A DNA stretch of 64,000 nucleotides. It comes from Betaproteobacteria bacterium. Its GTDB lineage: Bacteria; Pseudomonadota; Gammaproteobacteria; Burkholderiales; SG8-39. Of the stretch, positions 35,414-35,523 are shown piece after piece. Below the pieces are notes generated by a model that saw only the letters and a list, made by a program, of their open reading frames with translations, was not told the DNA's origin and did not search any database. The stretch's first letter is position 1, and every line of letters begins with the position of its first letter. The stretch lies in NCBI GenBank assembly GCA_031389685.1, contig JANMSV010000211.1:2263-66262 (forward strand), given 5' to 3'. The translations under genes were made by a program, and so were the position numbers.

Positions 35414-35523
35414 ATCAGACGATGTTAATCGTCTCCCGCTTCTCCTCCCTGAGCGGGTTGCCTTAATCCCAATTAAGGCGTTTCGCCCCCGGTTTACTTC
35501 CCCTTTACCGGGGGTTTTTTATT
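35414..35523 (+). ncRNA. candidate small RNA with anti-Shine-Dalgarno-like loops and an intrinsic terminator
   Basis: Four consecutive hairpins. 35417-35434 has a 7-bp stem. 35435-35457 has loop UCUCCUCCCUG. 35460-35479 has an 8-bp stem. 35486-35514 has an 8-bp GC stem with loop UUACUUCCCCUUU followed by U6. -10-like GATAAT at 35402-35407. The 5' end is a guess. Confidence 0.35.

Follow-up and report, generated by a model that had tools for sequence, protein, structure and literature searches.

A copy of the anti-hemB small RNA family between hemB and engB of a Betaproteobacteria bacterium, with a predicted sigma-E-type promoter

The spacer between hemB and engB in a 64,000-nucleotide stretch of contig JANMSV010000211.1 (assembly GCA_031389685.1, Betaproteobacteria bacterium), hereafter the window, contains a four-hairpin element that is a copy of the anti-hemB small RNA (sRNA) family. 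The element had been put forward as a candidate sRNA from the letters of the window alone (hereafter the sequence-only reading). This detection was right, and the family it belongs to is not new, having been described since 2007. We consider it probable that the element encodes a local anti-hemB sRNA of ~104 nt on the + strand, which acts by base-pairing and is transcribed from a promoter of the RpoE/sigma-E type. Any Rfam-based annotation would call the element anti-hemB, and an sRNA gene was detectable by a reader from the raw sequence.

To identify the family, we scanned the whole window with Rfam 15 at gathering thresholds, and positions 35250-35700 with a sensitive scan (E<=10). Family RF02837 (anti-hemB, "Burkholderia RNA 7") matched at 35432-35522 on the + strand with 76.2 bits, compared to a gathering score of 49.5 (E = 4e-16), and the match spanned positions 1-81 of the 81 in the model. 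The covariance-model search that the sequence-only reading had proposed was thereby positive. This was the sole Rfam match in the whole window at gathering thresholds, so the element is single-copy there. At E<=10, sub-threshold scores were obtained for sX13 (20.6 bits), ar14 (25.3) and LhrC (25.9), families with gathering scores of 50 to 110. As in RF02837, the element adjoins hemB on the opposite strand, has a Rho-independent terminator on the anti-hemB strand and consists of hairpins with covariation. We also looked for signs of a mobile-element origin and found no copy of the element in viral contigs or PLSDB plasmids.

The motif was first described in beta-proteobacteria as hemB/anti-hemB, with an ambiguous strand and a terminator at the end of the anti-hemB direction (Weinberg 2007, PMC1950547), and anti-hemB was later listed in B. 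pseudomallei (Khoo 2012). According to the papers that cite Ramos 2013 (PMC5688073, PMC6321483), that study recovered the RNA, there named Bc7, by Hfq co-purification, and hemB was a predicted target of Bc7. In B. cenocepacia J2315 the same RNA, ncS04, is 105 nt long and lies at 292949-293053 (+) between BCAL0264 (hemB) and BCAL0265 (engB) (Sass 2015/2017; PMC4603805, PMC5688073), where it is documented by a differential RNA sequencing start, 3' rapid amplification of cDNA ends and Northern blot. A discrete RNA of this length that associates with Hfq is known from B. cenocepacia only. A 2026 preprint ties the anti-hemB family statistically to low-salinity isolates and describes hemB synteny across families. 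The supplement of Sass 2015 also lists a second enriched 5' end at 292987 (+), 38 nt inside ncS04 and within the CCUCC loop. It may mark an alternative start or reflect RNA processing, and its equivalent in the window would be at ~35446-35448.

The locus in the window comprises the following features:
35384-35390, + strand: predicted -35 element GGAACTT of the sigma-E (RpoE/ECF02) type, from consensus match and conservation
35407-35411, + strand: predicted -10 element TCTTA after a 16-nt spacer, from conservation and alignment to the ncS04 start
35417-35520, + strand: predicted anti-hemB sRNA transcript of ~104-105 nt, with a start at 35416/35417 placed by homology and a 3' end in the T tract
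35417-35434, + strand: hairpin 1, AGACGAT-gtta-ATCGTCT, perfect stem, outside the 81-position Rfam model
35435-35457, + strand: hairpin 2, CCCGCT-TCTCCTCCCTG-AGCGGG, perfect stem, with a candidate seed loop resembling an anti-Shine-Dalgarno (anti-SD) sequence
35441-35451, + strand: loop of hairpin 2, UCUCCUCCCUG, near-invariant
35460-35479, + strand: hairpin 3, GCCTTAAT-ccca-ATTAAGGC, perfect stem
35486-35514, + strand: hairpin 4, CCCCCGGT-TTACTTCCCCTTT-ACCGGGGG, perfect terminator stem, followed by T6
35494-35506, + strand: loop of hairpin 4, with a second C-rich motif (YCCCCUUU)
35515-35520, + strand: T6 tract, an intrinsic terminator together with hairpin 4, flagged by the terminator scan
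34348-35352, - strand: hemB (porphobilinogen synthase), NCBIfam NF006762, 488.9 bits versus a cutoff of 297, divergent from the sRNA promoter
35494-36141, - strand: engB (YihA/YsxC GTPase), NCBIfam TIGR03598, 214.8 bits versus a cutoff of 124.45, convergent with the sRNA
35494-35520, convergent: sRNA 3' end overlapping the final 8 codons and the stop codon of engB (..KKPPVKGK*), read from the sequence

The hemB ATG at 35352 and the engB stop codon at 35494-35496 delimit a spacer of 141 bp (35353-35493). Its four perfect hairpins, already noted in the sequence-only reading, were reproduced with ViennaRNA, where the minimum free energy structure and the centroid were identical and consisted of the four hairpins on the + strand. 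The region 35414-35523 folds at -45.9 kcal/mol (z = -6.7), and none of 200 shuffled sequences was as stable. The predicted transcript itself (35417-35520) folds at -45.4 kcal/mol (z = -6.8) with a paired 5' end. Only on the + strand does the last hairpin run into a U tract; on the - strand it is followed by CGAAACG. The RF02837 match on the + strand and the mapped length of the ncS04 homologue bear out the proposal of a + strand sRNA gene of ~105 nt with an intrinsic terminator, and the pyrimidine-rich, anti-SD-like loops are present as described. The proposed overlap with engB also holds, for the stop codon and the last 8 codons.

We next determined how conserved the element is in related genomes. 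With EngB as the query we fetched 80 loci from species-representative genomes, the best with 82% EngB identity. All are from uncultured Burkholderiales or Betaproteobacteria metagenome-assembled genomes (MAGs), Nitrosomonadales included, which places the window outside Burkholderia itself. The 20 closest loci all matched RF02837, at 63-78 bits and in the same position and orientation. A motif search found the core hairpin in 78 of the 80 loci. Of the two loci without it, L034 is cut off within the terminator by a contig end, and L037 (Pseudomonadota MAG JBBPIU010000002.1) is the only complete locus of the 80 with engB but without the anti-hemB element. Down to 50% EngB identity, the order was always hemB (-), sRNA (+), engB (-). 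The same order was found in 26 further loci (L081-L106) obtained from a metagenome scan with a Burkholderia-type pattern, several of which are identical to the published ncS04 sequence. The record titles of seven MAG loci (L001, L013, L019, L030, L067, L077 and L080) are evidently wrong, "uncultured Enterobacteriaceae", "Sphingomonadaceae" and "Streptomycetaceae" being among them.

Across 78 distinct sequences, 97.8% of the alignment cells at paired positions could pair, versus 32-51% when the partners were slid. Ten pairs showed changes on both sides, and the covariation score was reached by none of 500 shuffles. The changes on both sides affect four of the seven pairs in hairpin 1 (96% of cells paired, with G-U pairs on the + strand) and five of the eight in hairpin 3, where for example GCCTTAAT/ATTAAGGC alternates with GCCTCGGC/GCCGGGGC and GCCCCGAC/GTCGGGGT. 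The conservation and covariation that the sequence-only reading had proposed to check in the hemB-engB spacers of relatives are thus found in 78 of 80 loci and in hairpins 1 and 3, respectively. When read as + strand RNA, the alignment contains 90 G-U pairs and 13 A-C mismatches, which indicates that it is the + strand RNA that is under pairing constraint. Hairpin 2 behaves differently from hairpins 1 and 3: its stem and loop are identical in most of the 78 loci and in Burkholderia ncS04, and a minority of loci differ at one or two positions of the loop or of its closing pair. Its loop, UCUCCUCCCUG, is essentially invariant from Burkholderia to MAGs at 43-50% EngB identity. The hairpin 4 loop contains a YCCCC(U/A)U motif in nearly all 78 clade loci, which is absent from the Burkholderia-type copies. 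The hairpin 4 stem in Burkholderia, CCCGCCG/CGGCGGG, is a compensatory difference.

The closest known relative is anti-hemB/Bc7/ncS04 of J2315. The CCCGCUUCUCCUCCCUGAGCGGG hairpin is identical in both RNAs, which share four hairpins, a length of ~105 nt, a 5' hairpin and an intrinsic terminator. Both also lie at the same place and in the same orientation between hemB and engB, close to dsbD and cytochrome c4. Their -10 regions align at equal distance from the start. The two RNAs differ in the sequences of hairpins 1, 3 and 4, compensatorily, and in the extra conserved C-rich motif of the terminator loop in the window. The window RNA also overlaps the engB stop and last codons with its 3' end, whereas J2315 has a 66-nt gap. 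Finally, the window promoter is a clean GGAACTT-N16-TCTTA, while the B. cepacia complex lacks this -35 and carries TGGTATATGAT.

Two conserved blocks, GGAACTT and TCTTA, precede the sRNA. The 64-kb window contains the pattern GGAACTT-N15-17-TCTNA exactly once, and shuffled sequences give an expectation of 0. We found 70 strict matches in 405 kb of related loci, every one of them directly upstream of the sRNA. Of 79 homologous loci, 71 have a perfect GGAACTT (including L035 and L042, where the regular expression missed only the hairpin-1 part) and 76 contain TCTTA, with the conserved blocks extending as GGAACTT(T) and (A)TCTTA(C). Loci of the Nitrosovibrio/Nitrosospira type within the Nitrosomonadales (L036, L047) have this promoter too. 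Among the 77 loci matched by the regular expression, 62 have a spacer of 16 nt between the blocks and 15 have one of 17 nt, and the -10 ends 5-6 nt before hairpin 1. In an alignment with the Burkholderia-type loci, TCTTA falls on TCATA/TGATA, at -10..-6 relative to the ncS04 start mapped in B. cenocepacia. This alignment places the start in the window at 35416/35417, rather than at 35414 as had been proposed, and gives an RNA of ~104-105 nt.

Promoters of the sigma-E class have the arrangement GGAACTT-N16-(G)TCnnA at a set distance from the start, and the blocks before the sRNA match it in sequence and in distance. The rybB and micA sRNA genes were discovered via the sigma-E promoter motif. 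In E. coli and Salmonella the consensus has been given as GGAACTTTT / GTCAAA (PMC1804206) or GGAACTT / GTC (PMC6648896), and SigE of Bordetella, an RpoE homologue from the Burkholderiales, transcribes E. coli sigma-E promoters (PMC3490749). From this match and its conservation we infer that the sRNA promoter is of the RpoE/sigma-E type in this lineage. The GATAAT hexamer at 35402-35407, which the sequence-only reading had chosen as the -10, is present in the window but reads GCAATC in most relatives, and we rejected it.

The promoter differs in the Burkholderia-type copies. An AACTT -35, separated from the -10 by 17 nt, is retained in Paraburkholderia-like copies. In B. cepacia-complex copies the GGAACTT -35 is lost; they contain TGGTATATGAT instead, with a sigma-70-like TATGAT at -12..-7, which fits the constitutive expression of ncS04. 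As a separate observation, the Burkholderia/Paraburkholderia-type promoters (L081-L106, e.g., L086 and L090) share an invariant (A/T)TGGTATAT(C/G)ATA(C/G)C block ~10-25 nt upstream of the start. The block, which the window's clade lacks, forms an inverted repeat over the -10, GGTAT-N3-ATACC, and may serve as an operator.

An ordinary sigma-70 promoter, with GATAAT or another hexamer as its -10, would be an alternative source of the sRNA. The GGAACTT and TCTTA blocks would then represent the hemB promoter on the opposite strand or the site of a regulator. GATAAT is indeed a good -10, TAAGAT, the - strand complement of the -10 block, matches TATAAT at four of six positions, and the B. cepacia-complex copies show that constitutive expression without GGAACTT occurs in the family. 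Still, we regard this explanation as unlikely. Besides the poor conservation of GATAAT, a sigma-70 promoter scan of 35000-36000 on both strands found none, and two invariant blocks with a 16-17-nt spacer at a fixed distance from the 5' hairpin, including a perfect GGAACTT(T) -35, form a classic signature of extracytoplasmic function (ECF) sigma factors.

Several observations weigh against our reading of the locus as a sigma-E-dependent, base-pairing anti-hemB sRNA. Sigma-E control is a match to a consensus that is enterobacterial and may not be the host lineage's own, the -10 ATCTTA fits the enterobacterial GTCAAA at only three of six positions, and TAAGAT could be a - strand -10 for hemB. A tblastn search of the 64-kb window with E. 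coli RpoE as the query found no rpoE, only a distant ECF sigma factor. Near-invariance of hairpins 2 and 4 within the clade, where five of six and five of eight pairs, respectively, never vary, means that they provide almost no covariation evidence, and the terminator loop also encodes part of EngB, which confounds its conservation. As no hemB promoter could be located in this lineage, antisense overlap between the sRNA and the hemB leader is a deduction. In B. cenocepacia, ncS04 was unchanged in seven conditions by quantitative PCR (PMC5688073, PMC4603805). We found no link of anti-hemB/ncS04/Bc7 to RpoE in the searchable literature, a weak negative as most subscription journals were not covered. 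To our knowledge, no function has been demonstrated for any anti-hemB member.

The distant ECF sigma factor is encoded at 38293-38790 (+), 3 kb from the sRNA. It has 165 aa, matches NCBIfam sigma70-ECF and is 30% identical to E. coli RpoE. An overlapping 259-aa open reading frame (ORF) downstream of it (38787-39566, +) probably encodes its anti-sigma factor. As the sequence upstream of the sigma factor gene itself (TGACGGAATA...GTTC) is not of the GGAACTT/TCTTA type, this is probably not the sigma factor of the sRNA.

We then considered which transcripts the sRNA could pair with. In J2315 the primary hemB start is at 293115 (-), 248 nt upstream of the ATG, so that the hemB leader is fully complementary to ncS04. 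An alignment of 21 sequences of the engB 3' end, inspected for a hemB promoter, showed no conserved -35 or -10 beyond protein-constrained codons and the complement of the U tract. On the - strand, the spacer between the two genes lacks a terminator. Given this and the lack of a detected sigma-70-like promoter, an engB-hemB transcript most likely reads through the spacer. This transcript is most likely the cis-antisense partner of the sRNA.

The same complementarity allows a reading in which the functional RNA is on the - strand: the "hemB motif" as a cis-regulatory hemB leader with G-rich GGA/GGAGG loops, either alone or in a sense/antisense pair. Comparable covariation in both directions and a usual position upstream of hemB were reported for the motif (Weinberg 2007, PMC1950547), its whole complement lies inside the J2315 hemB leader, the absence of a - strand terminator is in line with it, and the - strand also folds well (z = -4.8), as the stems are perfect. 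The excess of G-U pairs over A-C mismatches favours the + strand, however, as do an intrinsic terminator and a conserved promoter that are found on this strand only and the discrete + strand RNA mapped in B. cenocepacia. Furthermore, Rfam retains the anti-hemB orientation only, and our sensitive scan of 35250-35700 yielded nothing meaningful on the - strand. Taken together, we find a - strand leader quite improbable as the functional RNA. We also set aside CsrA-type GGA loops on the - strand, where only one loop is conserved family-wide.

With the anti-hemB sRNA as the functional RNA, the following mechanism can be proposed. An ECF sigma factor of the RpoE/sigma-E type would transcribe the gene from GGAACTT-N16-TCTTA, tying the RNA to envelope stress. 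From 5' to 3', the RNA would fold into hairpin 1, hairpin 2 with its exposed loop UCUCCUCCCUG, the variable hairpin 3 and the terminator hairpin, and may act as an Hfq-type RNA by base pairing. In cis, it would be fully complementary to the engB-hemB transcript, and a duplex between the two could change how hemB and the engB 3' end are processed or translated, or how stable they are. In trans, Hfq could assist the single-stranded CU-rich loops, which are complementary to GGAGG-type SD sequences, in blocking ribosome binding sites. A purely cis-acting antisense RNA does not need a near-invariant loop 2, which points to an additional conserved partner. Our analysis suggests that this partner might most simply be found in GGAGG-type SD regions. 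Pairing with SD regions is an established mode of action of sRNAs with CU- or C-rich loops.

Such loops were also the basis for likening the element to the betaproteobacterial toxic small RNA family (RF02278; ncS03, ncS05, ncS27 and ncS62) in the sequence-only reading, which did not name anti-hemB. Both are betaproteobacterial, have CU-rich, anti-SD-like motifs (CCUCCUCCC-like) in unpaired regions and a terminator with a U tract, and both occur in Burkholderia, where Sass 2017 grouped them among sRNAs with CU-rich stretches. Yet RF02278 had no match at E<=10 in 35250-35700 and none at gathering score in the whole window, where the element matches RF02837. The architecture differs as well. RF02278 members, 57-92 nt long (57-67 nt if the unprocessed ncS27 is excluded), are double hairpins with CU-rich motifs in the first loop and at the 5' terminus, whereas the window RNA has four hairpins in 104 nt and a paired 5' end, unlike ncS03 and ncS05. 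They are present in several copies per genome at unrelated loci, while the window RNA is single-copy and locked to hemB-engB. The missing match and the differing architecture refute membership, which we deem very improbable.

That the spacer is merely structured DNA without an RNA product, such as a terminator cluster or palindromes like repetitive extragenic palindromic elements, is hardly credible: perfect palindromes are common in GC-rich intergenic DNA, but this element is single-copy in the window, its loops are invariant in distant genomes while its stems change compensatorily, and the transcript has been experimentally verified in Burkholderia.

Several sRNAs outside the family invite comparison. 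The sigma-E-dependent sRNAs RybB, MicA and MicL of Enterobacteria, VrrA and MicV of Vibrio and the AlgU-dependent ErsA of Pseudomonas are likewise short, Hfq-type RNAs with an intrinsic terminator and a near-consensus GGAACTT -35. As cited in PMC6321483, Ramos 2013 retrieved RybB as a "homolog" of Bc7. There is no sequence or Rfam relationship, and the sigma-E dependence of the window RNA is a motif match only. These sRNAs use a 5' single-stranded seed against omp/lpp mRNAs, whereas the window RNA has a 5' hairpin, loop-displayed CU-rich motifs and a cis-antisense relation to the leader of a heme-synthesis gene. The resemblance is functional and at the promoter level only. With sX13 of Xanthomonas, alpha-r14 and LhrC of Listeria, the window RNA shares several hairpins with CCC/UCCC loops that pair with G-rich or SD regions. 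Judged from sequence, this likeness is convergent architecture rather than homology.

A wider reading, which we put forward tentatively and consider possible, although it has somewhat less than an even chance, is that anti-hemB is an RpoE-dependent envelope-stress sRNA of many Betaproteobacteria that throttles porphobilinogen synthase and heme supply, and that the B. cepacia complex was secondarily rewired to a sigma-70-like constitutive promoter. The induced RNA would pair with the engB-hemB transcript and, via its two anti-SD loops, with other mRNAs. Lowered porphobilinogen synthase would leave less heme for periplasmic c-type cytochromes, and the biogenesis genes dsbD and cytochrome c4 flank the locus.

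In the searchable literature, which is incomplete, we found no report of the putative sigma-E-type promoter or of the different promoter that seems to have taken its place in the B. cepacia complex, nor of the lineage-specific second C-rich loop and engB overlap. The anti-hemB family has been without a demonstrated function for almost 20 years, and its promoter, antisense lock and lineage-specific features may open it to experiment. The contrast between a strongly conserved sigma-E-type promoter in most lineages and a sigma-70-like one in the B. cepacia complex, in which the RNA looked constitutive, suggests both a condition, envelope stress, and the organisms for studying the RNA. The sense/antisense lock with the engB-hemB transcript points to hemB, hence heme supply, as the cis target, and the second C-rich loop and the overlap with the engB end are specific to the window's lineage.

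Each of the 77 related loci that could be scored shows this overlap between the sRNA and engB, most often 27 nt long, and 21 of 22 Burkholderia-type loci lack it. In the window, the terminator stem, loop and U tract of the sRNA are antisense to the sequence that codes for the C-terminal tail of EngB (KKPPVKGK*; 35494-35520). Relatives keep K/R-P-P-x-K-G-x* tails, which suggests that the EngB tail and the RNA terminator constrain each other.

On the other side of hemB, a 275-aa ORF at 33524-34351 (+) without an NCBIfam match lies between dsbD and hemB. In J2315, dsbD (BCAL0263) directly adjoins hemB, so the ORF appears to be a lineage-specific insertion into the dsbD-hemB-engB-cytochrome c4 block.

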